Assembly: GCA_011773515.1 (NCBI GenBank)
Contig: WVXK01000062.1
Location: forward strand, 164,928-228,927
DNA from: Deltaproteobacteria bacterium
Lineage (GTDB): Bacteria > Desulfobacterota > Deferrimicrobia > J040
Direction: 5' to 3'
Length of the DNA stretch: 64,000 nt
Shown here: positions 6,363-54,816 of the stretch, one piece after another
Numbering within the stretch: position 1 is the first letter of the stretch
Layout of the letters: every line of letters begins with the position of its first letter
Made by a program: the position numbers and the translations under genes
The notes under the pieces: generated by a model
Told to the model about the DNA's origin: nothing
Seen by the model: only the letters and a program-made list of their open reading frames with translations
The model's database searches: none

Positions 6363-6374
6363 GTTTTACTCGAT

Positions 6375-11401: not shown

Positions 11402-11494
11402 CTGAGCCTCCCTTTGACACTCCCTTTGCCCTGTATCCTTTCAAAAGCCGCGACGACGAGCGCTTTCATCATCTGCATCCGGCTTTTTTCCTTT

Positions 11495-13060
11495 TTAGTG
11501 TCTGAAATGTCTGATGCCCGTAAAAACCATTGCCATATCGTGTTCGTCTGCAGCCCTGATCACTTCCTCATCCCGGATCGATCCGCCGGGTTGGATTATG
11601 GCAGTGGCACCCGCCTCGGCAACCACGTCCACGCCATCTCTGAATGGAAAGAAAGCATCGGAAGCCACGACGCATCCCCTGGTGGATATTTGTGCTTTCA
11701 TTATGGCAATTCTTGCCGAGTCCACCCTGGACATCTGGCCAGCGCCGACTCCCACGCTTCTGTCTTTCCTGGCCAGAACAATCGCATTCGACTTTACATG
11801 TTTGCAGAGCTTCCAGGCAAAGAAAAGGGCCGACAGCTCATCCTCGGTGGGCTTTCTCTTCGTAACGGCTTTTAAAAGATCCGAGTTGAGCGTGGGCTCA
11901 TCAGCCGTCTGCACCAGCAACCCTCCTGAGACATTCTTCAGCTCCATTTTTTCCCTTGCTTCCCGGAAAGACCTCATGTCCACACGCATGACCCTGAGGT
12001 TCTTTTTTTTCGAGAGGACCTTCAGCGCCGCCCTGTCATAATCAGGAGCAACAATCGCCTCGAAAAAGATCTTCGCCATTCCTCTCGCGCAATCCTCGTT
12101 TACCTTTCTGTTCAACGCAACGATGCCGCCGTAGGCGGAAACGGGGTCGCACTCATTTGCCTTCTTGAAAGCATCGGAAAGTCTCCGCCTCGATATTCCC
12201 GCACCGCAGGGGTTGGTATGTTTTATGATTACTGCAGCCGGCTCGTCGAACTCCAGGGCGAGGGAGAAAGCCGCATCGATGTCCACGATATTATTGAAGG
12301 AGAGCTCCTTCCCCTGGAGTTGCTGCGCAAACCCCACCCCTGCAACGGGAAACCTGCCATCCCTGTAGAAAGCCGCCGTCTGGTGAGGGTTTTCTCCATA
12401 CCGAAGATCCTGCACCTTGTCCCACTGCCAGGTGAATACATCGGGGAATCCCTTCCTGTCACCTCCGTCTGCCAGGGAGTGGAGATAGTTGGAAATCGAC
12501 GCGTCATACCACGCCGTGTGAGAAAAGGCCTTTTTCGCCAGCCAGAACAGGAATTGCTCATCGAGGTTGCCGTTTTTCTTTTTCAGGGTATCGAGCACCT
12601 TTCTGTAGTCCTGCGGATCCACCACCACGCAGACGCTACGGAAATTTTTCGCCGCTCCGCGCAGGAGGGTCGGGCCTCCTATGTCGATATTTTCTATCGC
12701 CTCCTCTCTGCTGCAGGATGGGTTTTTTACCGTCTCCTCGAAAGGATAGAGATTGACGATGACCATGTCAAAGGGCCTTATATCGTGTTCCCTGAGAACT
12801 TTCATGTGTTCCCTTTTTTCTCTCATCGCAAGTATGCCAGCATGGATTCTGGGATGCAGGGTCTTAACCCGTCCGTCGAGCATCTCAGGGAATTCCGTGT
12901 AATCTTCGATCGCCCTGACAACGATCTTGTTTTTTTTCAGGAGACTGGCCGTTCCTCCTGACGCATAGATCTCGATCCCGAGCCTGTGAAGGCCCTTGGC
13001 AAAATCCACGATGCCACTTTTGTCCGACACGCTGATAATGGCCCTCCTGATCCTCGCCAT
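11495..13060 (-). CDS. purH: Bifunctional AICAR formyltransferase / IMP cyclohydrolase
   Basis: 521 aa with RALISVSDK-type N-terminus (IISVSDKSG), the MGS-like domain, and a C-terminal AICARFT domain. Confidence 0.9.
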   Translation of the reverse strand: MARIRRAIISVSDKSGIVDFAKGLHRLGIEIYASGGTASLLKKNKIVVRAIEDYTEFPEMLDGRVKTLHPRIHAGILAMREKREHMKVLREHDIRPFDMVIVNLYPFEETVKNPSCSREEAIENIDIGGPTLLRGAAKNFRSVCVVVDPQDYRKVLDTLKKKNGNLDEQFLFWLAKKAFSHTAWYDASISNYLHSLADGGDRKGFPDVFTWQWDKVQDLRYGENPHQTAAFYRDGRFPVAGVGFAQQLQGKELSFNNIVDIDAAFSLALEFDEPAAVIIKHTNPCGAGISRRRLSDAFKKANECDPVSAYGGIVALNRKVNEDCARGMAKIFFEAIVAPDYDRAALKVLSKKKNLRVMRVDMRSFREAREKMELKNVSGGLLVQTADEPTLNSDLLKAVTKRKPTEDELSALFFAWKLCKHVKSNAIVLARKDRSVGVGAGQMSRVDSARIAIMKAQISTRGCVVASDAFFPFRDGVDVVAEAGATAIIQPGGSIRDEEVIRAADEHDMAMVFTGIRHFRH

Positions 13061-13084: not shown

Positions 13085-14596
13085 TTATGGGCTCACAGGC
13101 GGAGTCGCCCTGAGCAGAGTCTTTAAGTCCTCGTCTCTCAACTCGATCCCGAAGCCGAAGAAAAACGTCCTCAAATCGCTATTATCATTGATGAAATCAT
13201 CGTATCCCGCAGTGAGAAAGAAGTTTCTAAAAATACTATAATTTCCGTAGAATTTCAAATGAGGATCGTTGTTGTCCCTGGTCAGGTCGAAGAAGTCAAG
13301 GTTTAAAACCAGCCTGTCGGAGAGGCTGAAGTAGGAAAGCCCGACACCGCCCGTGGACTCCATCAACCCCCCCCTGAAGGAGAAATCGCCAAACTGTTTC
13401 GATATTAAGGCGTTGAACTTGAGGTCATCGTCGAACTCAACCTTCTCCGTTTCCACGGTCGTGCCGGGAGGGGTCTGGGTTACTACGGTCCTGGTCGTCT
13501 CCACATTCCCGACAGGATCATCCACTATCCCGAAGAGGTAGTATTTATCCACCGTTGGCCGGATCTTCAGCGATGCGTACTGCTTGAACTCGGAAGACTG
13601 CTCCTGATACTCGAGCCGGTAGTCCAGGTAGGTTTGGAGGGCCTCGTACTTTTTTATCTGCCTGTTTATCCCGTCCATGGCGGAGCTGAAATCTTCGTAC
13701 GCTTTTTCATCGGTAACCAGTTTCCCGATTGTTCCCTCTCCGCTCTCTATCCTCTCCAGCGTGGAGTCGAGCCTGGCTGAGGCCGACTTGATGTTTTCTA
13801 TCGCCTCTTTTATGTCTTCCCGGTTCTCAGAGACGAATCCCCCGACCTCGTTCATCGTGCTTTCAATTTTGCTCGCAATCTCGGGCGTCCTTTCTTTCAG
13901 CGTGTCGGAGAATTCCCTGAGATTTGCAATCAGGATCTTTATGTCCTGCTTGCTCTCGCCCGATACCTCGCCCAGGTCGGCAGACAGCCTGTCGAGGTTG
14001 TCGAGGATCCTCCCGATCTTTTTCTCATTGGCATCCATCAGATCCCGGAACACCCTCGTTGAGTCTCTCAGGTTCACAACGATCTCTTTCAGGGACTCCC
14101 TTCCCTCCTCCTCCCCGAGCGCCTCTGCAAGCGACTCGGTAACTTTCTTGATGTCGTCGGCCATTATGGTTATTTTTCTCACGAACTCGTCGAAGTTGGC
14201 CCCGGGAGTCGACTTTGACAATACGCTCTCGGGTTGTATAAATTTCTCCTTTTCCTCACCGGGGATGATTTCGATGTATTTCTCCCCCAGGAGACCCTCG
14301 GAGGCAAGGGATATGGTTGAGTCCGCGGGAATCTCCACGCCCTCCTTTATGCTCATTCTGACCTTTGCCTTGCCATTCTCAAGCCGTATGCTGACCACAT
14401 TGCCGATAGGAACTCCTGCCATCTTCACCACGGATTTTTCATCGAGCCCTGAGACCGTATCAAAGATCGCGTATATTATGTACCCCCTCTCCGTAACCTC
14501 AATTTTGCCGACTTTGAGCGTAAAGTAGGCGAGTATGAGAATTCCGACAAGGACGAACATTCCGACCTTCGCCTCCTTGGAAATAAATGCCATCAT
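13085..14596 (-). CDS. mlaD: MlaD-like MCE-domain protein with long coiled-coil and C-terminal beta-rich extension (503 aa)
   Basis: N-terminal TM plus MCE domain (VKMAGVPIGNVVSI), followed by ~200 aa of heptad-like charged repeats and a ~150-aa aromatic-alternating C-terminal domain. Upstream are mlaF and mlaE. Confidence 0.75.
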   Translation of the reverse strand: MMAFISKEAKVGMFVLVGILILAYFTLKVGKIEVTERGYIIYAIFDTVSGLDEKSVVKMAGVPIGNVVSIRLENGKAKVRMSIKEGVEIPADSTISLASEGLLGEKYIEIIPGEEKEKFIQPESVLSKSTPGANFDEFVRKITIMADDIKKVTESLAEALGEEEGRESLKEIVVNLRDSTRVFRDLMDANEKKIGRILDNLDRLSADLGEVSGESKQDIKILIANLREFSDTLKERTPEIASKIESTMNEVGGFVSENREDIKEAIENIKSASARLDSTLERIESGEGTIGKLVTDEKAYEDFSSAMDGINRQIKKYEALQTYLDYRLEYQEQSSEFKQYASLKIRPTVDKYYLFGIVDDPVGNVETTRTVVTQTPPGTTVETEKVEFDDDLKFNALISKQFGDFSFRGGLMESTGGVGLSYFSLSDRLVLNLDFFDLTRDNNDPHLKFYGNYSIFRNFFLTAGYDDFINDNSDLRTFFFGFGIELRDEDLKTLLRATPPVSP

Positions 14597-15411
14597 TTCC
14601 TCCGGTCTAAAGGTTCTGCGGGCTTCGTGTCAAACTTCACAAACTCTTCACTTTCCTCTGTTATCGGACCCTCGGCACGGCCTTCTATAAACTGCCTCAC
14701 AATGGGGTTCTCCGAACTTCTCACCTCATCGGGGGTACCCACTTCAACGATTTTTCCATTATAAAGCATAGCAATTTTATCACCTATCTTATACGCAGAG
14801 GTCATATCGTGGGTTATGCTTATCGAGGTAACATTCAGGATACTCTTCATGCTGATAACCAGTTCATTGATTACATCGGCCATGATCGGGTCAAGACCCG
14901 TTGTGGGCTCGTCGTAGAGGAGTATCTCCGGTTCTGACGCAATAGCCCTGGCAAGGCCGACCCTTTTCTTCATCCCCCCCGAAAGTTCCGAAGGCATGAG
15001 ATGCTGGATGTTTCTCAAGCCCACCAGGGAAAGCTTCTCTTCGACGATCTGATAAAGCTTGCCCGCCGGAACCAGTTTCAGCCTCTTCAGCTCAAACGCC
15101 ACGTTCTCTCCCACGGTCAGGGAATCGAAAAGGGCCGCTCCCTGAAACAGCATCCCGAATTTTTTCCTGACCTCGACCATTTCCTCTTCAGTTATCTTCG
15201 TCACATCGACGCCGTCGACTGAAATACTTCCCGCATCCGGCTTCAGAAGACCTATGACGCATTTGATCAGGACACTTTTTCCCGATCCGCTCCCGCCTAT
15301 TACCACCATGTTCTCACCCTTGAAAATATCGAGATTGACCCCCTGAAGAACCCTGTTGATTCCGAATGACTTGTGCAGATCTCTTATTTTGATTATGGGT
15401 TTCATCATCAA
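14593..15411 (-). CDS. mlaF: Phospholipid ABC transporter ATP-binding protein MlaF
   Basis: Walker A GGSGSGKS, ABC signature LSGGMKKRV, Walker B ILLYDEP. Overlaps neighbours by 4 nt. Confidence 0.85.
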   Translation of the reverse strand: MMMKPIIKIRDLHKSFGINRVLQGVNLDIFKGENMVVIGGSGSGKSVLIKCVIGLLKPDAGSISVDGVDVTKITEEEMVEVRKKFGMLFQGAALFDSLTVGENVAFELKRLKLVPAGKLYQIVEEKLSLVGLRNIQHLMPSELSGGMKKRVGLARAIASEPEILLYDEPTTGLDPIMADVINELVISMKSILNVTSISITHDMTSAYKIGDKIAMLYNGKIVEVGTPDEVRSSENPIVRQFIEGRAEGPITEESEEFVKFDTKPAEPLDRRK

Positions 15412-16187
15412 AACAGGAGGGCGGTGAGGAAATAGTCCGAGATGAGGACAGACATCGCCGAAAATACCACAGCCCTGGTTGTGGATTTTCCCACCCCTTC
15501 TGCTCCCCCCTCGGTTTTGAACCCCTGGGAACAGCTGATCAGCGCAATCAGAAACCCGAAAACAGCAGCTTTCAGCAATCCGATGTATATGTCATCCAAT
15601 TCCAGGTATTGATAGGTTTTATTGATATACACGACAGGGTTTCCCCCGAGAATTTTCACGCTCACGAAATATCCACCCACGATACCGATGAGATCCCCGA
15701 AAATAACGAGAATCGGCATGACAATCGTCGTGGCAAGGATACGGGGGACGACGAGATACTTCACCGGGTTTGCCGCGAGGGTATACATGGCGTCAATCTG
15801 CTCCGTGACCTTCATCGTACCGAGCTCCGCCGCGATCGAGGCACCCACCCTGCCCGACACCATGAGCCCCGCAAAAACCGGCCCCAGCTCCCTTGTCATG
15901 GAGAGTGCGACAACGGTACCAACGAGGCTTTCCGCCTTGAATCTGGCAAAAGCCGACCACGATTGGAGGGCAAGCACCATCCCGGTGAACGCAGCGGTTA
16001 TCAAGACCACGGGAAGGGATTTTAAGCCTACCTCCTCTATCTGTTTGAGTATGTTATCTATTTCGGAAGGGGGCCGGAAAGCCCAGTATGTCGCATCCAT
16101 GAACATACGGCCATGATAACCGAGGCTCTCTACCAACCTGTATGCAACCTTTCCGATGGAGTTGATAAGCTCTGAAGCCATATTCAT
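15408..16187 (-). CDS. mlaE: Phospholipid ABC transporter permease MlaE
   Basis: 259-aa polytopic permease of the MlaE/YrbE family, in operon order with mlaF and mlaD. Confidence 0.85.
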   Translation of the reverse strand: MNMASELINSIGKVAYRLVESLGYHGRMFMDATYWAFRPPSEIDNILKQIEEVGLKSLPVVLITAAFTGMVLALQSWSAFARFKAESLVGTVVALSMTRELGPVFAGLMVSGRVGASIAAELGTMKVTEQIDAMYTLAANPVKYLVVPRILATTIVMPILVIFGDLIGIVGGYFVSVKILGGNPVVYINKTYQYLELDDIYIGLLKAAVFGFLIALISCSQGFKTEGGAEGVGKSTTRAVVFSAMSVLISDYFLTALLF

Positions 16188-24123: not shown

Positions 24124-25218
24124 GTGACCGATAAACAGACAATAGAGGACCTTAAGACCGAACTCATCGAATGCTTCGACTCAGGCGAATCCTTCCTCCA
24201 TCTCGGGATGAGCCTGAAACGTCTCCTCCGGTTCCAGCTCGCCATCTTTTTCGAAATCGACTGGAAGACAACAAGCCTCGTTCCTCTAAACTTTTTTCCC
24301 TCGGCCACGCGGAAAGTTCTGAAGCTCCAGAACCTCTCGATTCCATTTGACAGCTCAATTATAGATATCTTTTCCAAAAGCTGGATTCCGCTCAGGAAAG
24401 CAGGTGAGCGGTCAGGTCTCATGAGCAGAGCGATCGATGAACTTCCCGAACCCTTCGTGCTTTTTCCCTTGAAAGTGAAACAGCGGGTTCTCTGCGCAAT
24501 CGGCCTGTCCGGGCTCAAATACAAGAAGGAAAAAGACCTGGATGATCTCTCGGAGCTCTTCCGGCAACTTTCCCCGGTGCTCGAAAAAAACATGGTAATC
24601 GACAAATCGGTGAGGCGAAACCAGCGACTCGAGACGATCATCGGGCAGGGGCCCACCACATATTTCATCGTGAACAGGACAGGCCATATAAATGATTTTC
24701 TCCCCTGCAATAAAAATTTTCTCGGATACACCCCGGAAAATGTGGTCAGAGAACCCCTGTCATTGCTCTTTCCCATGGGAAAACCGATACTGAAAGCCAT
24801 CTGGAAACAGGTAAGAAGCAACAACAACCGGGTTTGGGGGCTGGTGAACCTTTCAAATGGCAGGAAAAACCTTGCTTCCCTCACCGTGGAAAAAGTGCTG
24901 CTCAAGTACACCCTTCAGAAAGAGTATTACCTCGTGGGCATCGAATCGGTGGAAAGTGAACTCCTGGGAAGTACTTCCTCTGAAAAGACCCCCCTGGCAA
25001 AACAAAAGGACGGTTGTTCTGTCATTCGGGTGCATATCTGCCCCGAAAACTTGCGCTGTGTAAGAAGGTGCGGAAAAATGGCAGAATACTCGGGGGAAGG
25101 GGCGTTTATCGTCGACATCGCCACATTCAAGGATGAGCGGTGCGCCCCCGAGAACAACTGCCTCATCGAATATCTCTCAGTAGGTAATCACCCTCATACC
25201 GAAGTCGCGATAGAGTAA
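24124..25218 (+). CDS. Hypothetical sensor-like protein (GAF-like N-domain, PAS-like middle, Cys-rich C-terminus)
   Basis: Protein-like composition. The C-terminal ~80 aa carry six Cys (CSVIRVHICPENLRCVRRCG...ERCAPENNC). The antisense ORF 24117-24911 has a non-protein-like composition. Confidence 0.5.
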   Translation: MTDKQTIEDLKTELIECFDSGESFLHLGMSLKRLLRFQLAIFFEIDWKTTSLVPLNFFPSATRKVLKLQNLSIPFDSSIIDIFSKSWIPLRKAGERSGLMSRAIDELPEPFVLFPLKVKQRVLCAIGLSGLKYKKEKDLDDLSELFRQLSPVLEKNMVIDKSVRRNQRLETIIGQGPTTYFIVNRTGHINDFLPCNKNFLGYTPENVVREPLSLLFPMGKPILKAIWKQVRSNNNRVWGLVNLSNGRKNLASLTVEKVLLKYTLQKEYYLVGIESVESELLGSTSSEKTPLAKQKDGCSVIRVHICPENLRCVRRCGKMAEYSGEGAFIVDIATFKDERCAPENNCLIEYLSVGNHPHTEVAIE

Positions 25219-27195
25219 ACCCCTCAAACCCAGGTCAACCTCTCCATCAACGAACAGGATATCCCGCTCACCCCCCGTGGACTCCTTCTTCAGAGCAAAA
25301 CCCGAGGCTCTCAAGGTGTAACCCTTATCTTTCCCGCCGCTGATAATCTCATTCTCGTAGAGTGAATACTCTACCCCGGCAAGCTTTAACAACCGGGGAA
25401 TAATGGTGGCGTACGAGCTGTTTGCCTCGACATGTATGATCCTGTACCCCTCTTTTACCAGCAGATCGGTAATCGGCTCGGCAAACCTCTCGGGATCGAG
25501 AATATACGGCTGTTTTTTCGCCCAGAAAACGAGATCTGGCTTTATGGTCAGGGTAAATGCGCCTTCCTTTCCCTTTATCGAAATCTTGTGTGACCTGCTG
25601 GAGCGAACACCAGCAGCATCGAGGATATACTTTGCTCCATCAGGGAGCATTTCCGGCACTTTTTCCCTGTCATAGTTATCCTCGGTCGCCTCTGCGTAGT
25701 AGGAGACGACATAGCCCTCTCCTATGGACCTGTCCACGTAATAGGGAATCACCAGTACCCCCGTTTTGAGGCAGTAGGCGTAAATGCTCGATTGAATCGG
25801 GGACAGCGAGGGCAGGTGAAGTCTCTTGATTGCATTCACTTCTCCCTTCAGTAAACTGTCATTCTCCCGGAGCGCGATCAGGTCGGCGTTGATGGAGACG
25901 GACACTTTATCGCCTATGACCAGCTGGGTCGTTCTCCCATCCTTTACCGAATAGTATCCCCCGGCTTTCAACAGGTTTTCCAGGAAGGCATCGATACCTT
26001 TCTCGCTGTCGTGCCTCAGGACGGCGTATCCCATCCACTTATCCCGAAGAACCCTTTCAACTTCCCGGGGGATGGAGCCCCAGAGGTCCAGTATTACATT
26101 TCTTCCATTCGAGAATCTTGCAATGGGATACTTTTCCATGTTGAGCACGAGTTCTCCCCCCCCGTCGAGGGGAACATACATTTCGCCCGAAAGTATCAGC
26201 TTTTCACCGAGCGCCGAGAGCAGGTCGCTGAAGAGGCCCCTTTGCTTTGGAAGGGACATCTGAAAATCGGGGCGCTGCGACCCGTGCGGTCGGGTGGATG
26301 TAATCGTGCCGGCATCGACATCCCCCTTCGTTGCCATTTCTTTCTCAAATACCTTCTCGGGATATGCCCGTTCGACCTCCAGGGTCCCCTTATCTCCCTC
26401 TGCGGGCCGATCGAGCACCGGCTTTTCCGGGGACAGATCTTCCGTCTCAGACTCACCCCTTACCTTTTCATCTCCGACAACGGCGGCATCGAGACTGCCC
26501 GCAATCTCCTTCTCGTCGTCACGTAAATCAGCCTGAGCCTCTCCCGCCACCTCTTCCATGCGGGCAAAAGTGGGTTCCCGCTCACTCCCGTCTTCCAGAA
26601 AATAGCTGTAGTTCGGAAGATAGAATTTCTGCCCGGGATAAATCCAGTCGGGATTTTTCAAAAAGGGGTTTAATTCCCTGACCTCTTCGATATATTTCAG
26701 CATCTCCCTGGTGCTTCTGAACTCGCCGGGCGCAGTCCTCCACAAAATATCGCCTGAAGTCACCGTGTATTCAAATATCTTCCCCTGCCGGACCATACTT
26801 TCCAAAAGATTTTTTTTCCCCAGGGTTCCAACATTCATGGGGAGTTTTACGCGGCTCTCTCTCTTGATCAGAGAGGGATTCGCAATGCCGGGGTTTGCCT
26901 TCTCGAACGCTTCGACGAACAGGGAAAACTCACTCTTTCTGCCACCGAGCTTATCGGTAAATATTTTCCACAAAGAATCTCCCTTTTCCATCCTGTACAC
27001 TTCGAAAAACTTTATCTGCTTTCCTGCTTTTTCGGCAATCACCCGTTTTTCAAGATATATTTTCGGTCTTCCTGCGCTTTCCTTTGCCGCCAGCGCAAGG
27101 CTGTGGCTTCCTGACAGAACGGCGAGGATCAAGAGAAGGGCAATATGACGGTTCACATGATTCTCCTTCAAAAACTGTAGTCGGGAAAGGTACAT
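25177..27195 (-). CDS. Large secreted protein with N-terminal LysM-like repeats, an acidic linker and an unknown C-terminal domain
   Basis: Signal peptide; two LysM-like segments (YRMEKGDSLWKIF, YTVTSGDILWRTA); D/E-rich linker; 672 aa. Confidence 0.6.
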   Translation of the reverse strand: MYLSRLQFLKENHVNRHIALLLILAVLSGSHSLALAAKESAGRPKIYLEKRVIAEKAGKQIKFFEVYRMEKGDSLWKIFTDKLGGRKSEFSLFVEAFEKANPGIANPSLIKRESRVKLPMNVGTLGKKNLLESMVRQGKIFEYTVTSGDILWRTAPGEFRSTREMLKYIEEVRELNPFLKNPDWIYPGQKFYLPNYSYFLEDGSEREPTFARMEEVAGEAQADLRDDEKEIAGSLDAAVVGDEKVRGESETEDLSPEKPVLDRPAEGDKGTLEVERAYPEKVFEKEMATKGDVDAGTITSTRPHGSQRPDFQMSLPKQRGLFSDLLSALGEKLILSGEMYVPLDGGGELVLNMEKYPIARFSNGRNVILDLWGSIPREVERVLRDKWMGYAVLRHDSEKGIDAFLENLLKAGGYYSVKDGRTTQLVIGDKVSVSINADLIALRENDSLLKGEVNAIKRLHLPSLSPIQSSIYAYCLKTGVLVIPYYVDRSIGEGYVVSYYAEATEDNYDREKVPEMLPDGAKYILDAAGVRSSRSHKISIKGKEGAFTLTIKPDLVFWAKKQPYILDPERFAEPITDLLVKEGYRIIHVEANSSYATIIPRLLKLAGVEYSLYENEIISGGKDKGYTLRASGFALKKESTGGERDILFVDGEVDLGLRGLLYRDFGMRVITY

Positions 27196-27953
27196 TCTCC
27201 GGCATGCACACCGATGGTCTTGTACATTTTGGGGCTCACCCAGGGATCTTCGAGAATGCCGTCATGTATCGACCAGGATCTTCCCCTCACGGTTTTCTCC
27301 ATCCCCTTTTTTCTGAAAGGCGTGGACCCGTCAAGTCTTTCGAAAAGAGTCCCCCCGGGTTGAAACTCCCGGTGAATGTACTTCATTCTCTCTTTCCCTT
27401 TTATGTGCGCAAATCCGTATTTTTCGTATATTATAGCGCTGTAGTATCCGAGGGGCTCCAGAAAAAAATAGCGGTGGCCCATCTTCGAAAAGAAGTCATC
27501 CCATATCGAAACGAGCTGTCTCATGAGCCTGAGCCCCTTCCTGACCTGTCCCGGGGCGAGGCCGGCCTCCATCGCCCTTATCTCCTCGGGAACGTTTCGC
27601 CGGACCGTTCCGAAATACGTTTCCCTCCCCGCATCATCCACATCGATGTTGTAGCGTTCAGATTCGGGGTCGTTAACAACGATGAAAGATATTTCCATCT
27701 GGCCGAAGGATGTGGTTGAAATGTCCAGAAACATCACCGGGTCTCTGTCGTCGGGATCCCTCCACAACTCTACCTGGAAAAAGGGCATCTTCCGCGGGTT
27801 TGTAAATTTCACGCACTCTTTGCCGTGAGGGTTTTTAAAGGTCCTCCTGTCGATAGAATAGGTACCGAAAAGTATATCGGGAATAAGGGGCAGCAAAAAG
27901 TCCCTTCTCTCTATTTCCGGCATACTGTTGATGTCGAAGGCTGTCTGCGGCAT
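27168..27953 (-). CDS. Hypothetical protein with C-terminal GNAT-like acetyltransferase fold
   Basis: VRKGLRLMRQLV...YYSAIIYEKYGF resembles GNAT motif A/B. Overlaps the downstream LysM gene by 28 nt. Confidence 0.45.
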   Translation of the reverse strand: MPQTAFDINSMPEIERRDFLLPLIPDILFGTYSIDRRTFKNPHGKECVKFTNPRKMPFFQVELWRDPDDRDPVMFLDISTTSFGQMEISFIVVNDPESERYNIDVDDAGRETYFGTVRRNVPEEIRAMEAGLAPGQVRKGLRLMRQLVSIWDDFFSKMGHRYFFLEPLGYYSAIIYEKYGFAHIKGKERMKYIHREFQPGGTLFERLDGSTPFRKKGMEKTVRGRSWSIHDGILEDPWVSPKMYKTIGVHAGECTFPDYSF

Positions 27954-27963
27954 TGAACCCGGT

Positions 27964-28392
27964 TTAAAACTTCTTGGTCTTCAAGCCATCGAGGGAATCG
28001 AACAGGCTGTGGCGTATATCCAGGACAGGCGAGCCATCCACGGCGTCGAGATGGACTACGTGCAGGATATTCTTTTCGATACCCACTACCTCTACCGGGC
28101 AGATGCCGACCGGGTTTGGCCTGTCGGGACCCCTCGTTCCAAAAACTCCCTTTTTCCTGTTCCTGTTCCAGAGGGTTGTCCTTTTTGCCCGGCCCATCCA
28201 GTAGAGGATATCAAGAATGTCCCCGATACGTATTCCCTCAACACCCTTTTCGTATTCCTGAAATAGCTCCACGCGTGATGCTTCGCTGCTGAGAAAACCC
28301 TGCTTTGGAGCTTCTTTTCTCGATGGAAAAGGAGACCTGATGATCCCGATAGGCCTGATGTAAATTTCTCTCTTGTCACCACCCATATTCAA
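27964..28392 (-). CDS. trmO: tRNA (t6A37-N6)-methyltransferase TrmO/TsaA family (YaeB-like)
   Basis: IGIIRSPF...DRPNPVG signature of the TsaA/YaeB fold. Confidence 0.7.
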   Translation of the reverse strand: MNMGGDKREIYIRPIGIIRSPFPSRKEAPKQGFLSSEASRVELFQEYEKGVEGIRIGDILDILYWMGRAKRTTLWNRNRKKGVFGTRGPDRPNPVGICPVEVVGIEKNILHVVHLDAVDGSPVLDIRHSLFDSLDGLKTKKF

Positions 28393-30200
28393 TCTTCGTA
28401 GAGACTGTCGAGCAGGCGGCCGTATTTTTCCACGACAACTTTTCTCTTCACCTTGAGCGTTGGAGTAAGCTCGCCTGTTTCCTGGGAAAAGTCGTCGGGG
28501 AGGATAAGGAACCTCTTTACCGTCTCGAAGGATGCAAGCTTCGCGTTCACTTTGTCGACGCTTTTTTGAATCAAGTCGTTAACCTCCCTCCCGGTGGCGA
28601 GATCCTCATAGCTGTCGTATTGAATGCCCTGCTCCCTCGCCCAGGCCTCGATCTCTTCCCTGTTGAGGGTCATGAGCGCAACAAGGAACTTCTTTCTGTC
28701 TCCGTAAATGAAGGACTGGGAAACGAAGTTATCCATCTTGAGGAGATTTTCTATGTTTGCAGGAGGTATGTTCTTTCCCGATGCCGTTACGAGAATATCC
28801 TTCTTTCTGTCCGTAATCGTAAGAAAACCATCCTCATCTATCTCGCCGATATCACCCGTCTTCAGCCACCCATCTTCGGTTTTCGCATTTCTCGTGCCCC
28901 CGGGGTCATTCAGGTACTCTTTGAAGATGTTCTTTCCCCCGATCAGAATCTCACCATCTTCTACAATCTTGATCTGCACATCCGGGAGCGGCAGACCTAC
29001 CGTCCCGAATTTAAAATTGTCGAGTCTGTTGACAGAAGCCACCGTCGAGCACTCTGTGAGGCCATATCCCTCCAGGATCAACACATCCATTGCATGAAAA
29101 AACTCGGCAATCTCCTTTGCAAGGGGGGCTCCGCCGGAAATGAAAAACCTCAGTCTCCCGCCGATCCTCTCTTTGATCTTGTCGAAAACCAGCTTTTTTG
29201 CTACGGCAAACCTGACACCCAGCAGAAAGGGAATGGACTTCTTCTGCTGCCGCAAACGGGACACTTCTATGCCGGTTTCCAGGGCAAATCGGAAGATCTT
29301 TTTTTTCAGGGGAGACCCCTTCTCGACCATCTCCATCACCCTGTCATAAAACTTCTCATAGAGCCTCGGGACGCTGACCATGATATGAGGCTTGACCTCG
29401 GCCATGTTATCTCCCACGGCCTCCATACTTTCGGCGTAGGCGGAGACCAGATTGGCATCGAAGGAGATGAACTGTTCGATCCTGCCAAGGGTGTGGGCAA
29501 AAGGGAGAAAATGGAGCATTATCTCACCCTCCCTTATCTCTGTTGCCCTGATGGAGCAATTGACCATGAACCAAAAATTTTCCTGGGTGGTCACCACACC
29601 TTTTGGCGGCCCCGTCGTGCCGGAAGTGTAGATAACGGTTAAATCATCTTCCGGTTTTATCTCCCCGGCGACACGGTCGATAAAATCGGGGTCACGGTTT
29701 TGCGCTTCCTCTCCCATCTTCTGAAGCTCATTGAAGGAAATCACATCGGAGGGCTTCATGAGATCTGCTTCAATGGGTGTCATGGAGACGATCCACTTCA
29801 GGTCGGGAACGCTCTCCCGTATTGCGTTCACCTTCATCATCTGCTTTGCATCTTCAACGAAGATGGCCTTGGCTTTGCAATCTCCGAGTATGTATTCAAC
29901 CGTATCGGGGAGGAGTGAGTGATAGATGGGAACGGTGACAAACCCCCCCACGATACAGGCTGCATCGGCGAGAGTCCATTCAACCCTCGTGTAGGACAGA
30001 ATGCTCACCTTGTCCCCTTTTTCCAGACCGAGCGAATAGAGGCCGGCTGAAAGCAACCTGATAATTTTTCCCGCCTGCGCGCAGGTCATGTCCACCCAGG
30101 AATTGTCCCTCTTGTATCGAAACTTCACCTCATTCTTTCTGCTTTCAAGCCTGTCCAAGAACATGCGGGACAGGGTTTCATACCCCATCTGAACCTCCAT
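28389..30200 (-). CDS. Long-chain fatty acid--CoA ligase (AMP-binding enzyme)
   Basis: YTSGTTGPPKGV AMP-binding motif, 603 aa, GEIDEDGFLTITDRKKD C-terminal domain. Confidence 0.85.
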   Translation of the reverse strand: MEVQMGYETLSRMFLDRLESRKNEVKFRYKRDNSWVDMTCAQAGKIIRLLSAGLYSLGLEKGDKVSILSYTRVEWTLADAACIVGGFVTVPIYHSLLPDTVEYILGDCKAKAIFVEDAKQMMKVNAIRESVPDLKWIVSMTPIEADLMKPSDVISFNELQKMGEEAQNRDPDFIDRVAGEIKPEDDLTVIYTSGTTGPPKGVVTTQENFWFMVNCSIRATEIREGEIMLHFLPFAHTLGRIEQFISFDANLVSAYAESMEAVGDNMAEVKPHIMVSVPRLYEKFYDRVMEMVEKGSPLKKKIFRFALETGIEVSRLRQQKKSIPFLLGVRFAVAKKLVFDKIKERIGGRLRFFISGGAPLAKEIAEFFHAMDVLILEGYGLTECSTVASVNRLDNFKFGTVGLPLPDVQIKIVEDGEILIGGKNIFKEYLNDPGGTRNAKTEDGWLKTGDIGEIDEDGFLTITDRKKDILVTASGKNIPPANIENLLKMDNFVSQSFIYGDRKKFLVALMTLNREEIEAWAREQGIQYDSYEDLATGREVNDLIQKSVDKVNAKLASFETVKRFLILPDDFSQETGELTPTLKVKRKVVVEKYGRLLDSLYED

Positions 30201-30207
30201 CCTCCAG

Positions 30208-30975
30208 TTATTCGCCGTATTCGATTGCCAGGGTCACCGTATTGCTCCGTTTGTTCTTGCTGTTGAGAATCCAGCCGGTATATACCAGCCGCCTTACCTT
30301 TTTATCCATATGGGCAGTTTCGGTGAGCGTGAATATGGAATCCCCTTTCATTCTGTCACCGTGGGTCCCGTCATCATACAGGATATCGGTCCCGAATGTT
30401 ATGTTCCCCGTGTCGATATCCTTTGCATAATAGTAGAGGAGCACCGTCTCACCGACATATTCCTTATTCGAACTGAGATTGAACTCGACGACTTTTATCT
30501 CGAGCCTTCCCTGTTCTCCTTTCTCGAGGCGCGTCGGGTACCATATTATCTGGGCAAATATTTCGGAATCGACGTGACAGCTCAGGCAGAGCTTTTTTCC
30601 CGTGATTGTTTTCCTCTTGTGGACGGGTATTCTCTCGATAACATCGTGGCAGCTCGTGCATATGATCTTCCCGTCCCTGTCGAGGGGAAGCAGCTTCGTT
30701 CCCTCTGACGTCGGTGAAACAACCAGCGTCACCGGATGCTCGTGCTCGTAGTCCTCGTGACACTGGCCGCATATTTTGTCTATTTCCCCTTGAAAAAGCA
30801 GGTTTGCCTCCTGCCGGGACACGCCTTCCTCTTCGGGAACCCGGGTGTGACACTTGATGCAGTTTTCCCTTTCGCTGCTATCGTGAAAACCTTTGGGCCC
30901 CGATGCGGAAGTTGCGCCGGGGAGAGAAAACAGGCACAGCACTAACAAGAGCAAAAAGGTATTTCTCTCCATCAC
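30208..30975 (-). CDS. Secreted tetraheme c-type cytochrome with an extra C-terminal domain
   Basis: Signal peptide; four CxxCH motifs (CIKCH, CGQCH, CTSCH, CLSCH); ~100-aa non-heme C-terminal region. Confidence 0.75.
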   Translation of the reverse strand: MMERNTFLLLLVLCLFSLPGATSASGPKGFHDSSERENCIKCHTRVPEEEGVSRQEANLLFQGEIDKICGQCHEDYEHEHPVTLVVSPTSEGTKLLPLDRDGKIICTSCHDVIERIPVHKRKTITGKKLCLSCHVDSEIFAQIIWYPTRLEKGEQGRLEIKVVEFNLSSNKEYVGETVLLYYYAKDIDTGNITFGTDILYDDGTHGDRMKGDSIFTLTETAHMDKKVRRLVYTGWILNSKNKRSNTVTLAIEYGE

Positions 30976-32676
30976 CTACCCTTTCTCGCCTCTTCTCAAG
31001 AGAGACTTTATAAATGGTATCGCATCCTCGAAAGTCACTCTCCCATCCATCAGCAGATTGACCACAGAATCTTCAGGTCCCAGCCTGACATGGGACAGAA
31101 TTTTCTCCCGCTTCTCCTCCTCGGACTTATCCATCAACAGCTCCATCCGCACAGAAGGAGAAAATACAATGAGGTCAAAGAGGGCTGTTTTTCCCGTATA
31201 CCCTGTGCCGTCGCAGACTGCACATCCCGTTGGTATGAAGTATTTCAGCTTTCCCAGGAACTGTCCCTTGTCCGATTCTATCATCGCCCGGGAGAGATAC
31301 ATAGATGGGATGGTGGGAAGTTCCTTCTTGCAGACGTCACAGAGAATCCTCACCAGCTTTTGAAACACCAGCGCCTTCATCGACGAGGCAAGCACATAGG
31401 GGGAAATCTCCGAATTCACGATTCCCTTCAGGGCATCTTCCAGCGACTGGCTCTGAATCCCTGCGAAAACGCTCATCCTGCTCGAATCGATGCGACCCAT
31501 TTCACTCATGAGTCTTTCGACGGGAATGTTGTCGTACATCAGAATATCGGGTGAAAGAGTCCTGATAATTTTTTCAATCGACAGGTCCTCTTCCATCATC
31601 TTCTTCTCAATCTGTATGAACCCTTCGTTTTTATATCTTATGTCTTCCTCCATCGCCACGATCCGGAAAAATGGGTCCAGGGCGTGCCGGACCATTGAAT
31701 ACAGAGTCGTGGATACGCCATCGTACAGGGGTGAGGCAATCACGTATACCCCTTTTTCCCTGCGTATCATCCCGGTTATCGATTCAAGCTGATCCCCGTC
31801 GAATCCAAGATTTTCTAACGAGAGCTTTCCCAGGGCGTTCGGTATCACCTTCACCACCGCCTTTTTTGCACCGGCTCCTGAAATCAGAGCCACCTTGTAC
31901 ATGCCGAATCTCTTTCCTTTCCCCGTCTCGAGAATTCTCTCCTCGATCGTCGCGCTCCCCTTATGGAAGCCGCACAGCTTCTTGAGCCCAGAAAAGACAA
32001 ACTCCCCTACTTTTTCCTGTGTCTCGAGAAGGATAACGCTCCGGGAATCTTCGCGGCCCTCGATGATGAACTTTCCCAGCACATAGTGGAAGGTCATCAC
32101 CTCAATGCCCTCGATCCTCGCCATATAAAGTATTTCCGATACGAGGCCGATGCTGTCTCTCGTGCCCAGGAACTTGGCCACGTTGATCTCCTTCGAAAGC
32201 TCTCCCGATATGCTCCTCTCGGTTATAAAAACAGGTGGTGGATAGAGTCGCATGAGCGTTTTCTGGAGTGAATCCTTACCCACGAGCGCTACCCTGACCT
32301 TTTTTCCCGTCAACCCCTCGATCCGCCGGAACACTCTCGGGCGGAGAGGATTGTGAACACCGACCGTGACGAATTGATCATTCACCGAAAGGGGAATTAC
32401 CTCTTCCCCCCAAGCGATTTCCGAGGGTATGACTGGAGCCAAGGATACATCCACGTCTCCTTCCTTGAGCACCGCGAAGGGGATGTCAAAGTTTTGAGAA
32501 AAGATAAAGGGCAGGGCATCGGCAGAAACAAGCCCCGTCACCATGGCCTCCTCGAGGACATCCCTGCCGCTTCGGAGCGAGGCCTCCACGAGTTGGGAAA
32601 TGCTTTTTACGTCCAGAAGCTTGAGGGAAACGAGCTTTTCTACTATTTCCTTGCTCTTTTTCATAAACCCGTCCAC
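30976..32676 (-). CDS. GspE/PilB-like pseudo-ATPase: MshEN/T2SSE_N-like N-domain, degenerate secretion-ATPase core, intact C-terminal tetracysteine zinc finger
   Basis: N-terminal domain resembles the GspE N1 domain. Walker A is replaced by ASPLYDGVSTTLY and Walker B/Asp box by ILMYDNIPV. The His box is lost. The C-terminus retains LVFQKLVRILCDVC...CAVCDGTGYTGKTALFDL. Confidence 0.6.
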   Translation of the reverse strand: MDGFMKKSKEIVEKLVSLKLLDVKSISQLVEASLRSGRDVLEEAMVTGLVSADALPFIFSQNFDIPFAVLKEGDVDVSLAPVIPSEIAWGEEVIPLSVNDQFVTVGVHNPLRPRVFRRIEGLTGKKVRVALVGKDSLQKTLMRLYPPPVFITERSISGELSKEINVAKFLGTRDSIGLVSEILYMARIEGIEVMTFHYVLGKFIIEGREDSRSVILLETQEKVGEFVFSGLKKLCGFHKGSATIEERILETGKGKRFGMYKVALISGAGAKKAVVKVIPNALGKLSLENLGFDGDQLESITGMIRREKGVYVIASPLYDGVSTTLYSMVRHALDPFFRIVAMEEDIRYKNEGFIQIEKKMMEEDLSIEKIIRTLSPDILMYDNIPVERLMSEMGRIDSSRMSVFAGIQSQSLEDALKGIVNSEISPYVLASSMKALVFQKLVRILCDVCKKELPTIPSMYLSRAMIESDKGQFLGKLKYFIPTGCAVCDGTGYTGKTALFDLIVFSPSVRMELLMDKSEEEKREKILSHVRLGPEDSVVNLLMDGRVTFEDAIPFIKSLLRRGEKG

Positions 32677-32775
32677 GCCTCGCTTGCTTTCATACTTAAA
32701 AAACTTTATATAAAATTACTAAGGTTGTAAAATCTATTTAATTTCTTGAGCCGAATGACATTTGCTGCGGGATAA

Positions 32776-33774
32776 ATGGCAATGAAAAAGTTTTACCCTC
32801 TTGCATTTCCGGTTACCTTTGCCCTGCTCCTCCAGGGTTGTTTCGTAACTACTACGAAATACGATTCAAAAACCAAAGAAGCCGATATGTTGAGAAGCGC
32901 CCTCTCAGAGAGCAAGAAAAAAAACAATGCCCTCATTATTGAAATCGAGGAGATCAGCAAAACCGTCGATGCCCTCTCGAGTGAGCTGAACATTACCAAG
33001 AGCGAACTTTCAGCGCGGGGAGAAGAGGTCGAAAGGCTGCAGGGAACGGTCGAGGAACTTCAGAAAAGATACGATACCACGAAAATATCGAGGGAAACAC
33101 TGATAAGCGAACTTCTCGAAAAGGAGAAAAAATACTCTATTCAGATCAAGGAGCTTACGGTGGAAAACTCGAAGCTCGAAAATACGGTGGAAGCGCTGAA
33201 CGGGGAGGTTGGCGACCTAAAAACCCGTCTTGCATCGGCCGAAGTAAGGAGCAGCGACCTGGAAGAGCTCTCTTCGAAGGTCCACCTCCTCGAAGGGAGA
33301 ATCGCACGCCTGAAAGAGGAGATCGCTGATTTTCTCCCACTCTCCGGTGTCAGGCAGAAAGGGGCTGCTGCCCTCTCAGAGACTTACTCATCGCGATTCA
33401 TGGCCAGGGACATCTCCTTTCTCTTCGCCTCCGTACCTTTTGAAGCGGCGCTGGACAGTGACGGGAAAAAACTTTCAGAGGATTTTCACGACTTCCTTTC
33501 CACCCTCGTAGAACTCTGTGAGAGCGAAAAAGATTGCAAGATAGACATAATCGCAGCGGGAAGAACCCACGATGGAAGCCTGAAGTTTCTCAACGCCCTG
33601 AAGGACAAAGAGCTCGTCCTTATCAAGGCCCTGGAAAGTTTCACTTCATCGCTGGACAAAAAAGCAGATCTCATCAGGCGCAAGGGGCGTGTCACCGTGA
33701 TCGACAAAATGGGGGAAAAAGAAACGGACCGGGTGGACGTAAACATCTATCTCGTCCGGGAGCAGGCCGGGTAA
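32776..33774 (+). CDS. Coiled-coil lipoprotein (hypothetical)
   Basis: Signal peptide with an LLQGC lipobox-like site and ~180 aa of coiled-coil heptads, then a C-terminal alpha/beta region. Confidence 0.55.
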   Translation: MAMKKFYPLAFPVTFALLLQGCFVTTTKYDSKTKEADMLRSALSESKKKNNALIIEIEEISKTVDALSSELNITKSELSARGEEVERLQGTVEELQKRYDTTKISRETLISELLEKEKKYSIQIKELTVENSKLENTVEALNGEVGDLKTRLASAEVRSSDLEELSSKVHLLEGRIARLKEEIADFLPLSGVRQKGAAALSETYSSRFMARDISFLFASVPFEAALDSDGKKLSEDFHDFLSTLVELCESEKDCKIDIIAAGRTHDGSLKFLNALKDKELVLIKALESFTSSLDKKADLIRRKGRVTVIDKMGEKETDRVDVNIYLVREQAG

Positions 33775-48955: not shown

Positions 48956-51091
48956 TCAACCCCTCGAAGAGAGAAGGAAAGACATTGCAAGGACGAAGAG
49001 CGACAAGGCACCGATTACGAGGGAACCCACCGCCACGCCGCAGAGGGGAAGAAGGAATGAAGCGCCGGTGAAGGCGGCCGATGCCGAACCGGCAAGGTCA
49101 AGGGCATAGGCGCGGCTGTAGGAACCCAGGCGGTGACCCGATCCGGCAAAAAGCCCCCCTCCGCCCGATCCCGTGACAAAAAGGGCAAAGTAAAAGAGCG
49201 GGGACGGGGGAACACCGTTTTGCCCTCCGAAGACCCACAATACGAGTATGGCCGAAAGCACCGTCCCCGCGAGCATGGCGAAAGAAGCTTTCTTTACGCT
49301 TCCGAGGACCCCGGAAGACCCCGCTGCGAGCCCCACCATGTAGGAGCAGAAAAGAAGACCGATGTGGGTGTACACGCTGCCGAAAGCCATCTGAAAGGCA
49401 AATATGAGGGATACCTCAACGAGTATCCCCAGGGCTCCGGAGAAAAAGAGTATCGCCTGGGCAAAGCCTCTTCCCAGCAGGGCCGTGGTGCCGAAAAAAA
49501 AGAGGGCGTAAAACATAAGAAAGGAAAGCAAAATCATGGCAGGGGAAATCTTGAAAAGCCTGACGATCGCCCTGTCGGCAATGTCTGGGTGCTGGGAAAA
49601 AACCGAGGAGAGCCCGTGGATTACCGGGAGTTGGTCGAAGATTCCCCCGCCACCCCTTCCGGTCAGAAGTGACCGAGCCCATGCCTCCCGTTTGCCATCC
49701 ATCCGGAATGGGACTATCTCCGGGACGAAGTAGACGTTTTTCAAATGCCTTGACCGTAACCGGCCCGCCACCACGTCGAAATCTGCCTTATCGACCGGAA
49801 GGGAGGGTGAAGCGATAAAAGAAAACTCATCACCGGGGATAATGCGAAGGGCGCCGAAAGACCCGAGCATGGCGGAATGAAGAAAATCCAGGATATGGAC
49901 GTAATCATCGCCGAGGTAGTCCCCGCCGAAGGGAAGTCTTACGAACAAGATGCCCGTCTTTGCGAGAGCTCCGGAAAGGTTCCTGTAAAAGGATGCCCGC
50001 AATGTCCGGAGCGAAGAGAGGGTTACAGGCAACCCCGGCGCCTGGATGATGACGTCGTACTCTCTTCCCCCCCCGTTGAAAAAGCGCACCGGATCCTCGG
50101 GAACATACACTTCTGCGAGACCCTTGCCACCGATCTGGGCAATGACACTCTCGGCGTGCAGGAAGTCAGCGTCGATTACGGACACGCTCACGTCCCCATA
50201 TTTTTCACACTCCCGGACAAGTGGCAGAAGGCTGGCGCCTATCAGGAGAAAGCGGCGAGGCGTCTTTCCAAACGATGCCGGGAAGTGGACCATCTCCTCG
50301 GAAAAAACAGGGTCCCCGGAAACGAACTCCCTCTTTAAATTGGCATAGAATGTTTTCTGTTCCCCATCAGTGGTCACGTCAAACCTTCCCGTCAGAGTCT
50401 GTCTGTAATGGGTGTGTTCGAACCCGCGAAAAGACCAGGCAGAGGTGAGGGAATCGATATAGCGCGAACAAAGAAGCAAAGCAAGTGACGCAAGCAGCAG
50501 CAGAAAAGGGGAGACAAGGGAGAGCTCCACCCCATTCAGAACGCGGCGGACGAGGATAATTGCCGCTGCGCTCGAGAGAAGACAGACGGAAAGAAAAAAA
50601 TAGGGGCCCGCCTCGATGCAATATGGAATGAGGGAGAGCACACCCGCAATCGATGCGCCGATGGCCTCATAGAAAAAGACGCTGCTCTTCCCGGCCCGGG
50701 GGTCGTCAGTGAGCGAGAGTTGCCGAAAGAGCATGCCACCGGCAAGGGAGGGAAGGAGGAGGGGAACGGAGGTGACGAGGAGAACGAGGTCAAACGGTGG
50801 CGCCTCACCCGGCAAGATTCCCACGATGACACGCGCCCCGCGGGTAAACAAAACGCCCAGCAGCGCGAGAAGGGGAATGGCGAAGGCGAGAGCTTCGATC
50901 AGCCTCCATGAAGGCCTCACGCCCTCCCGGAAGGAAAGGGCGCCGGCACCGCCGGAGAGCAGCCACAGGCCCAGCCCCATACCGTAGACCACCTCGTTCC
51001 CACCGCACTGGGAAAAAACTTCTCTCAGGATAACGACCTGCGACAGGAGCGTTGAAAAGCCCAGGAGAATGGAAAACAGGGCAGTTTTCAT
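48956..51091 (-). CDS. Polytopic membrane protein with a central spermidine/spermine synthase-like domain flanked by N- and C-terminal multi-TM regions
   Basis: About 7 TM helices, then an aminopropyltransferase-like fold (FLLIGASLLPLVRE...VIDADF...DVIIQAPGLP) with a degenerate GGGDGG motif, then ~6 more TM helices. Its ATG overlaps the rSAM stop. Confidence 0.6.
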   Translation of the reverse strand: MKTALFSILLGFSTLLSQVVILREVFSQCGGNEVVYGMGLGLWLLSGGAGALSFREGVRPSWRLIEALAFAIPLLALLGVLFTRGARVIVGILPGEAPPFDLVLLVTSVPLLLPSLAGGMLFRQLSLTDDPRAGKSSVFFYEAIGASIAGVLSLIPYCIEAGPYFFLSVCLLSSAAAIILVRRVLNGVELSLVSPFLLLLASLALLLCSRYIDSLTSAWSFRGFEHTHYRQTLTGRFDVTTDGEQKTFYANLKREFVSGDPVFSEEMVHFPASFGKTPRRFLLIGASLLPLVRECEKYGDVSVSVIDADFLHAESVIAQIGGKGLAEVYVPEDPVRFFNGGGREYDVIIQAPGLPVTLSSLRTLRASFYRNLSGALAKTGILFVRLPFGGDYLGDDYVHILDFLHSAMLGSFGALRIIPGDEFSFIASPSLPVDKADFDVVAGRLRSRHLKNVYFVPEIVPFRMDGKREAWARSLLTGRGGGGIFDQLPVIHGLSSVFSQHPDIADRAIVRLFKISPAMILLSFLMFYALFFFGTTALLGRGFAQAILFFSGALGILVEVSLIFAFQMAFGSVYTHIGLLFCSYMVGLAAGSSGVLGSVKKASFAMLAGTVLSAILVLWVFGGQNGVPPSPLFYFALFVTGSGGGGLFAGSGHRLGSYSRAYALDLAGSASAAFTGASFLLPLCGVAVGSLVIGALSLFVLAMSFLLSSRG

Positions 51092-54658: not shown

Positions 54659-54816
54659 GGCAACTCCTCCTATGAGGAAATTCCCCATTGGTTCAAGCAT
54701 CAGTATATTATATATTGCCAACAGGGCCATGGATACCTCGCTGGACTCTTTAACGGGATCGCCCACGGACTGGGGGAAGGTCACCTTGCTTCATCCCGTC
54801 AAAGGGGGAGGAGATA

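Follow-up and report, generated by a model that had tools for sequence, protein, structure and literature searches.

Motor ATPases of secretion systems and pili are usually regarded as obligate enzymes. Within the PilB/GspE family of such motors, PilB of Myxococcus xanthus signals independently of ATP hydrolysis (PMC5544727). MshE of Vibrio cholerae carries an N-terminal MshEN domain made of two tandem 24-residue motifs, RLGxx(L/V/I)(L/V/I)xxG(L/V/I)(L/V/I)xxxxLxxxLxxQ, which lie 5 residues apart and whose R-h-G triads contact the guanines of cyclic di-GMP (c-di-GMP) (PMC5013675). In PilF, slight deviations from the motif make the GSPII-A domain unable to bind (PMC12002112). In this study, a gene for a PilB/GspE-like protein, followed directly by the gene for a tetrahaem c-type cytochrome, was analyzed in a 64,000-nt stretch of DNA from a Deltaproteobacteria bacterium (contig WVXK01000062.1, positions 164,928 to 228,927; the whole stretch is called the window below). 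An initial annotation, made from the sequence alone, had described the pair as a c-di-GMP-responsive dead ATPase coupled to a periplasmic electron carrier. Our analysis favors a different reading, to which we give a probability of roughly 0.55: the protein would be a phylum-restricted, non-catalytic paralogue (pseudoenzyme) of PilB/GspE/MshE with a regulatory, scaffold or conformational-signalling role. It is referred to below as the pseudo-ATPase.

Loss of the catalytic motifs

The true start of the pseudo-ATPase gene is probably the ATG at 32664, downstream of the GTG that opens the reading frame (Table 1). The resulting protein of 562 aa is identical to GenBank NIO16875.1, which is annotated as 'hypothetical protein'. 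Its motifs were compared by alignment to PDB entries, to 19 homologues and then to 168 profile hits. The best solved relative was M. xanthus PilB (3jc8), with a full-length alignment at E 1.4e-27, in which ASPLYDGVSTTLYS faces GPTGSGKTTTLYS, SPDILMYDNIPV faces DPDIIMIGEIRD, VFAGIQSQS faces VLSTLHTND, and MEEDIRY faces AEDPVEF.

Where Walker A should follow G-x-x-G-x-G-K-[ST], the pseudo-ATPase reads ASPLYDGVST. The Asp box, EDP[VI]EY in active homologues, is EEDIRY; Walker B, PDIIMVGEIRD in active homologues (pattern DPDhhhhGEhRD), is PDILMYDNIPV; and the His box, LSTLHTND in active homologues, is VFAGIQSQS. Because the Walker A Lys, the Walker B Glu, the Asp box and the His box have all been lost, the pseudo-ATPase is predicted to be unable to hydrolyse ATP by the mechanism of its family. 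The replacement of catalytic residues described in the initial annotation was confirmed. That annotation had also allowed for an intact P-loop turning up on realignment; none surfaced in the alignments listed above, whether for the window protein or for family members with a readable region.

Domain architecture, fold and zinc module

Two Pfam profiles matched the pseudo-ATPase above their cut-offs, T2SSE (PF00437) at residues 270-525 (E 7.7e-20, 71.3 bits, cut-off 24.9) and MshEN (PF05157) at residues 63-147 (E 4.9e-11, 42.9 bits, cut-off 23.1). Scores were far below the NCBIfam equivalog cut-offs, being 114 versus 676 bits for PilB (TIGR02538) and 103 versus 630 bits for GspE (TIGR02533). 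An AlphaFold (AF2) model, computed with a 17-sequence alignment as input, had a mean predicted local distance difference test score (pLDDT) of 81. Its best Foldseek match was GspE (4pht, E 2.7e-30), followed by PilF (5oiu) and PilB (5tsh) at 1e-27 to 1e-29, and it contained the N2 domain and the RecA-like C-domain fold. All three parts of the family's architecture are kept: the N-domain is of MshEN type, N2 follows, and the RecA-like C-domain bears a zinc tetracysteine. The four Cys residues of this motif, C446, C449, C485 and C488, are invariant across the family. The domain content, the GspE/PilB-like core and the C-terminal tetracysteine were therefore all as first annotated.

Distribution and selection of the family

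Among 5.8 billion proteins, a word-indexed search returned only five close relatives of the pseudo-ATPase, and an exhaustive hidden Markov model (HMM) search of 1.84 billion cluster representatives returned about 12 family clusters. All of the latter are without the Walker A Lys, one member (P0021) having Arg at that position, while most other listed profile hits carry the canonical GPTGSGK[ST]. The family consists of two deep subclades with a mutual identity of only about 25%, and in both of them all four catalytic motifs are degenerate in every member in which the region was read. The consensus is [SAG]SPxx[DES]G[VRG][STA]TTL at the former Walker A, EE..[FY][KR]..GFIQ at the former Asp box and PD[IV]L at the former Walker B, with the His box absent.

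Genome matches were all 'Candidatus Deferrimicrobia/Deferrimicrobiaceae/Deferrimicrobium' or unclassified 'Deltaproteobacteria' metagenome-assembled genomes. All family members found belong to the candidate phylum MBNT15/Deferrimicrobiota, an uncultured phylum of iron-reducing bacteria, and the pseudo-ATPase appears to have been inherited vertically. Genomes of this phylum are rich in multihaem cytochromes, with 13-55 each, and type IV pilus genes have been reported for a Deferrimicrobium genome (PMC9386147).

The ratio of nonsynonymous to synonymous substitution rates (dN/dS) was 0.14 between the pseudo-ATPase of the window and a 92%-identical relative, close to the 0.13 of the adjacent acyl-CoA-synthetase-like gene. 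Conservation within the family peaks at aa 314-330 (former Walker A), 341-357 (former Asp box with GFIQ), 480-500 (second CxxC) and 541-555 (C-terminal motif), and T323/T324, E343/E344 and D377 are invariant. The former nucleotide pocket, whose Walker A is among the best-conserved stretches, and the zinc module are the best-conserved parts of the protein. A decaying relic without function could be suspected since all catalytic motifs are lost and identity is about 25%, against 54-67% for most neighbours. Such decay is barely credible, given the intact full-length open reading frame (ORF) in 14 of the 15 aligned sequences from across the phylum, the invariant Cys and other residues, and the dN/dS of 0.14, because of which we regard the gene as maintained. 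The pseudo-ATPase is an ancient protein kept by purifying selection and no recent pseudogene.

Proposed role of the pseudo-ATPase

Because the genomic context is uninformative, the mechanism proposed here is drawn from the anatomy of the protein. With its partner-binding modules kept (N-domain, N2 and zinc module) and its non-catalytic pocket conserved, the pseudo-ATPase would act by binding and not by catalysis. As a subunit with a regulatory or scaffold role, it may dock on the partners of an active PilB or GspE, namely platform proteins of a type IV pilus (T4P) or a type II secretion system (T2SS), or on the active ATPase itself. Alternatively, its output may be signalling by conformation, as with nucleotide-free M. 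xanthus PilB in the regulation of exopolysaccharide (EPS).

Several observations weigh against this proposal. No pilus or T2SS gene was detected in the 64-kb window (Pfam, 47 ORFs) or in any fetched locus of a relative, and no platform, pilin or secretin gene in the 5-10 kb flanks of the relatives' loci; the proposed partners are therefore conjectural. The apparent operon includes functionally unrelated genes, so that no positive functional clue comes from it. In addition, the former P-loop, SP..xG.sTTL, is conserved with both Thr residues, and an acidic residue directly precedes the position of the lost Walker B Glu, which leaves room for residual binding of a nucleotide or ligand.

The latter features would fit a ligand-gated switch, in which a nucleotide or another phosphorylated ligand is bound or slowly turned over at the remodelled site. 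The S-P-x-x-x-G-x-[ST]-T-T loop, the EE of the former Asp box and the shifted acidic residue of the former Walker B are all conserved; the former Walker A and Asp box hold the top conservation and the invariant residues named above, and the Arg of P0021 occupies the place of the lost Lys. However, that place varies among Val, Gly and Arg, the second Gly of GxxGxGK and the whole His box are lost, and the R-x-R-x-R segment of N2 keeps one of its three Arg residues. Such a switch is unlikely, and a regulatory, scaffold or signalling subunit remains our preferred reading.

N-terminal domain and c-di-GMP

For MshEN domains, a relaxed search pattern has been supplied by Wang et al. 2016 in addition to the strict one (PMC5013675). 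By regex search and position scoring, neither pattern was matched in any of 10 family members. Of the 139 active homologues among the hits, 47 matched the relaxed pattern at least once and 18 twice. In the two structurally aligned registers of the window protein, starting at E10 and D39, 8/11 and 9/11 of the constrained positions agreed. The hydrophobic scaffold has persisted; in place of the R-h-G triads stand EIV (aa 10-12) and DVL (aa 39-41). The 24-residue stretch singled out in the initial annotation as a c-di-GMP motif, KLVSLKLL...RSG, agreed at 5/11 relaxed positions and lies out of the register of the structural alignment. Judged from these residues, canonical c-di-GMP binding by the N-domain is unlikely, and the c-di-GMP responsiveness first ascribed to the protein was not upheld. 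Since four helices are still predicted in the domain (residues 2-13, 21-32, 36-43 and 50-59 of the AlphaFold model), the N-terminal bundle probably has a structural role or mediates interactions.

Elsewhere, the window encodes a probable c-di-GMP phosphodiesterase, in which a response-regulator receiver is joined to an HD-GYP-type (HD_5) domain (Table 1). Its presence indicates that the organism has c-di-GMP signalling; the gene lies 24 kb away from the gene pair.

The cytochrome and its pairing with the pseudo-ATPase

The two ORFs were found on the minus strand at the coordinates first annotated. In the window, GTG ATG comes immediately after the stop codon TAG of the pseudo-ATPase gene (30978-30976), and the genes are thus at most 3 nt apart. 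The reported abutment of stop and start holds for the GTG at 30975, the ATG lying 3 nt further on; it is not kept in relatives, in which the spacing runs from a 4-nt overlap (L023) to a gap of about 58 nt.

The cytochrome has an N-terminal hydrophobic, signal-like sequence and CXXCH motifs at residues 39, 69, 106 and 130. It passes the Pfam thresholds of Cytochrome_C7 (33.1 bits) and Paired_CXXCH_1 (32.1 bits) and reaches no NCBIfam cut-off. Its homologues form 42 clusters with 47-89% identity; the four CXXCH motifs and H30, H77 and H79 are invariant in 22 homologues, and all contexts examined are syntenic loci of the Deferrimicrobiota type. AlphaFold predicted a 7-strand beta-sandwich at residues about 138-254 (pLDDT about 75), with only generic immunoglobulin (Ig)-like neighbours in Foldseek; confidence for the haem domain was below 50, and that part of the model is unusable. 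The protein is thus a tetrahaem cytochrome with predicted Sec-dependent export and a separate C-terminal domain, as the initial annotation had it. The beta-sandwich carries the invariant motif ITFGT..L.DDG..GDR..D...T and scores close under the NCBIfam 'choice-of-anchor X' cut-off (24.2 versus 25 bits), which hints at a surface-anchoring or metal/calcium-binding Ig-like module. Weak sequence matches were obtained with ActA (8k9e, E 6e-4) and 9yuq (E 2e-3), reflecting haem-motif spacing only. The likeness to the nanowire cytochrome OmcE (7tfs) is unspecific, the match being short and weak (E 6e-4 with the single sequence and 9e-3 with the profile, over 33-55 residues at the last two haem motifs) and equalled by ActA and NrfB.

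The gene pair was followed through a census of 23 family loci from about 14 lineages. A scan of metagenomes anchored on the neighbouring 261-aa gene gave only 4 close loci, and the census was built by other routes. The conserved order is: a divergent coiled-coil gene, the pseudo-ATPase, the cytochrome (not always present), an AMP-binding enzyme, TrmO (not always present), the 261-aa protein and a LysM protein. The cytochrome stands next to the pseudo-ATPase in the window clade, L007, L023/24, L025, L026, L032 and L033, and probably also on a 4520-nt contig that, going by matching length alone, seems to carry both P0020 and P0184. Counting this probable case, adjacency occurs in at least eight lineages, in both deep subclades. 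The cytochrome is missing at the locus in L006/L009/L028, L005, L010/L011, L022 and L030, each of which is sister to a cytochrome-bearing lineage in the pseudo-ATPase tree. Because the cytochrome-less lineages are scattered in this way, the simplest history is an ancestral arrangement of pseudo-ATPase and cytochrome with at least four independent losses of the cytochrome.

The converse case was found in L031 (JGI Ga0453684_0000385, 3864-7746), which keeps the coiled-coil, cytochrome and LysM genes and has none for the pseudo-ATPase, AMP-binding enzyme or 261-aa protein within the 10.8-kb locus. Since the cytochrome lies between the missing genes elsewhere, the pattern implies that the three cytoplasmic genes either went in two deletions or moved together to another place. 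Compared over the same lineages, identity is about 50% for the cytochrome and about 25-27% for the pseudo-ATPase, and this slower divergence of the cytochrome gives no sign of co-evolution. Furthermore, a region of about 20 kb is syntenic across the phylum, with flanks that include deacetylase, CBS-ACT, NifU, AhpC and rubrerythrin genes; with the wider gene order conserved, the pairing is unspecific. Old and common as the adjacency is, it is unspecific and non-obligatory and shows no co-evolution. Of the functional pair proposed in the initial annotation, the old, frequent and apparently ancestral adjacency stood; a functional link between the two proteins is only weakly supported in view of the cytochrome losses, L031, the variable spacing and the phylum-wide synteny.

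These observations bear on the idea of a c-di-GMP-sensing pseudo-ATPase coupled translationally and functionally to the periplasmic cytochrome, for example to its production, export or placement. Adjacency in both deep subclades, the gene overlap in L023 and the HD-GYP response regulator of the window are in its favor, as is the use of a T2SS by Shewanella for displaying multihaem cytochromes on its surface (PMC3279761). Against it stand the relaxed MshEN motif found in no family member, the EIV and DVL in place of the R-h-G triads, the repeated cytochrome losses together with the cytochrome of L031 that has no pseudo-ATPase beside it, and the inconstant gap and unequal rates of divergence. 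We consider the idea very unlikely; neither a c-di-GMP-gated pseudo-motor coupled to an electron carrier nor, more generally, a link to electron transfer is supported. A still bolder and highly improbable version would be a device specific to Deferrimicrobiota, in which the pseudo-PilB recruits or gates pilus or T2SS machinery to export the small Ig-anchored cytochrome, or place it on the surface, for extracellular electron transfer, the adaptor being re-used for other cargo after loss of the cytochrome.

Neighbouring genes and context in the window

Wherever the pseudo-ATPase occurs, the AMP-binding enzyme, the 261-aa protein and the LysM protein are in synteny with it, and the coiled-coil protein is a neighbour in all lineages, L031 included. 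In rate of divergence the LysM and coiled-coil proteins are similar to the pseudo-ATPase, with 27-37% identity in the distant subclade, and the enzymes encoded between them show 54-67% identity over the same lineages. The 261-aa protein, at 60-79% identity phylum-wide, is far above its neighbours; it had no match in Pfam, NCBIfam or PDB sequence searches, and its gene always follows that of the AMP-binding enzyme (or TrmO) and overlaps the start of the LysM gene.

A further possibility is that the pseudo-ATPase partners the downstream cytoplasmic AMP-binding acyl-activating enzyme and the 261-aa protein instead of pili or the cytochrome. The three genes co-occur in every pseudo-ATPase lineage, and all three are missing together in L031, where the cytochrome, LysM and coiled-coil genes stay. 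However, L031 is one such genome with 10.8 kb seen, and the unrelated tRNA methyltransferase TrmO belongs to the same string, so that membership in the operon is functionally little informative. We also know of no earlier case in which a PilB-like protein works together with an acyl-CoA synthetase. This partnership is rather improbable, and docking on T4P or T2SS components, or signalling by conformation, is still preferred.

A weak promoter match was located upstream of the pseudo-ATPase gene (Table 1), and the scan for promoters and terminators gave counts at the shuffled expectation. The ORFs of the window are of housekeeping type and include purine synthesis, an Mla transporter, CysS, NifS/NifU, adenine deaminase and a radical-SAM/AMMECR1 cluster. 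Immediately downstream of a radical-SAM / DUF362 / Memo-AMMECR1 string, and in the same direction, there is a 711-aa ORF without a Pfam match.

Table 1. Positions of the pseudo-ATPase, its motifs, the cytochrome and other features in the window (aa, amino acids)
Feature	Position	Strand	Remarks
PilB/GspE-family pseudo-ATPase gene	30976..32676	-	ORF of 566 aa from GTG at 32676
N-terminal four-helix bundle (predicted)	32491..32649	-	aa 10-62, at the place of the 53-residue MshEN c-di-GMP site
Degenerate Walker A	31696..31737	-	aa 314-327, ASPLYDGVSTTLYS for GPTGSGK[TS]TTLYS; Lys to Val
Degenerate Asp box and family-specific GFIQ motif	31606..31653	-	aa 342-357, MEEDIRYKNEGFIQIE for xEDPxEY..G.NQ
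Degenerate Walker B	31516..31554	-	aa 375-387, SPDILMYDNIPVE for DPDIIMVGEIRD; catalytic Glu to Asn
Degenerate His box	31438..31473	-	aa 402-413, SVFAGIQSQSLE for LVLSTLHTNDA; both signature residues gone
Tetracysteine zinc motif	31213..31341	-	C446-x2-C449 ... C485-x2-C488, invariant in the family
Exported tetrahaem c-type cytochrome	30208..30975	-	255 aa; 254 aa from ATG at 30972
Beta-sandwich of the cytochrome (predicted)	30208-30630	-	
AMP-binding acyl-CoA-synthetase-like	28389-30200	-	tightly packed, co-directional, downstream of the pair; string 25177..30200
TrmO	27964-28392	-	same string; missing in some lineages
Conserved 261-aa protein, no known family	27168-27953	-	same string
LysM protein	25177-27195	-	same string
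Divergent coiled-coil protein	32776..33774	+	N-terminal hydrophobic/lipoprotein-like leader
Sigma-70-like promoter match	32703..32731	-	TTTACA-17-TAAAGT; weak; upstream of the pseudo-ATPase, in the divergent intergenic region of 100 nt
Receiver fused to HD-GYP-type (HD_5) domain	56316-57008	-	probable c-di-GMP phosphodiesterase
711-aa ORF	48956-51091	-	
Radical-SAM / DUF362 / Memo-AMMECR1 string	51088-54784	-	

Comparison with known systems

PilB (M. xanthus 3jc8, Geobacter 5tsh) and GspE/EpsE (4pht, 1p9r) are the closest matches of the pseudo-ATPase in sequence and fold, and they share with it the length class, the three-domain architecture and the zinc module. It differs from the active proteins in having none of the four catalytic motifs and no pilus or T2SS genes nearby. 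The pseudo-ATPase is best classed as a previously undescribed, non-catalytic variant of the known PilB/GspE family; a full-text search of the literature gave no account of a naturally dead PilB/GspE paralogue or of other lysine-less PilB-like proteins.

With the MshEN domain of V. cholerae MshE (PMC5013675), the N-domain has in common the four-helix bundle, the PF05157 subdomain and the hydrophobic heptad-like positions, whereas neither of its repeats has the Arg or the helix-start Gly, and Ser and Asn stand where the Gln would be. In this respect it resembles the non-binding GSPII-A domain of Thermus thermophilus PilF (PMC12002112). The cytochrome is like c7-type cytochromes, NrfB, ActA (of alternative complex III) and OmcE in its four CXXCH motifs, paired-CXXCH spacing and signal peptide; compared with them, it has in addition an Ig-like beta-sandwich at its C-terminus, which is conserved and bears a DDGTHGDR..D motif.

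At least nine other lysine-less PilB/GspE-like proteins were present in the top 150 profile hits. Like the window protein, these proteins, for example HPZ09714.1/P0009 of Eremiobacterota and P0042, P0017 and P0067, are full-length MshEN plus T2SSE proteins without the Walker A Lys. P0009 also has an EGFIQIE motif in common with the window family, and P0042, unlike that family, is an orphan in its genomic setting. A neighbour-joining tree grouped the degenerate PilB-like proteins with the window family uninformatively, given long branches and possible long-branch attraction. In a locus of an Eremiobacterota-type lineage (L034; ENA ERZ27257494 k141_218634, 8001-11902 and 13219-15499), the degenerate P0173/P0009, with SSPSKIDLSRT at Walker A, lies directly upstream of two PilT-like genes, and two further T2SSE-domain genes follow 3.5 kb beyond. 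This protein is independently degenerate. Lysine-less PilB-like proteins in other uncultured lineages suggest that such loss is a recurrent, so far undescribed evolutionary outcome.

The profile hits also comprised tandem two-core PilB-like proteins of about 1000 aa (P0025, P0027-P0030, P0032, P0033, P0036-P0038, P0040, P0076 and P0107), in which the second core is often a variant (GPTSxGKT, NPN for DPD). Against the pseudo-ATPase profile they outscore ordinary single-core PilB proteins.

For annotation, it follows that a 'PilB/GspE' or 'MshEN' domain match is not proof of an ATPase or of a c-di-GMP receptor. A naturally dead paralogue, present phylum-wide and under selection, would demonstrate that a use of the PilB/GspE scaffold without catalysis, in regulation, scaffolding or signalling, has been conserved, and it would be the natural counterpart of the ATPase-independent signalling of M. 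xanthus PilB mutants. In ATPase-deficient M. xanthus PilB, the scaffold has a hydrolysis-independent output, the nucleotide-free conformer signalling to EPS production (PMC5544727). That case concerns an active motor that was engineered or mutated, whereas the Deferrimicrobiota protein is a separate paralogue in which the loss arose naturally, is ancient and has become fixed.

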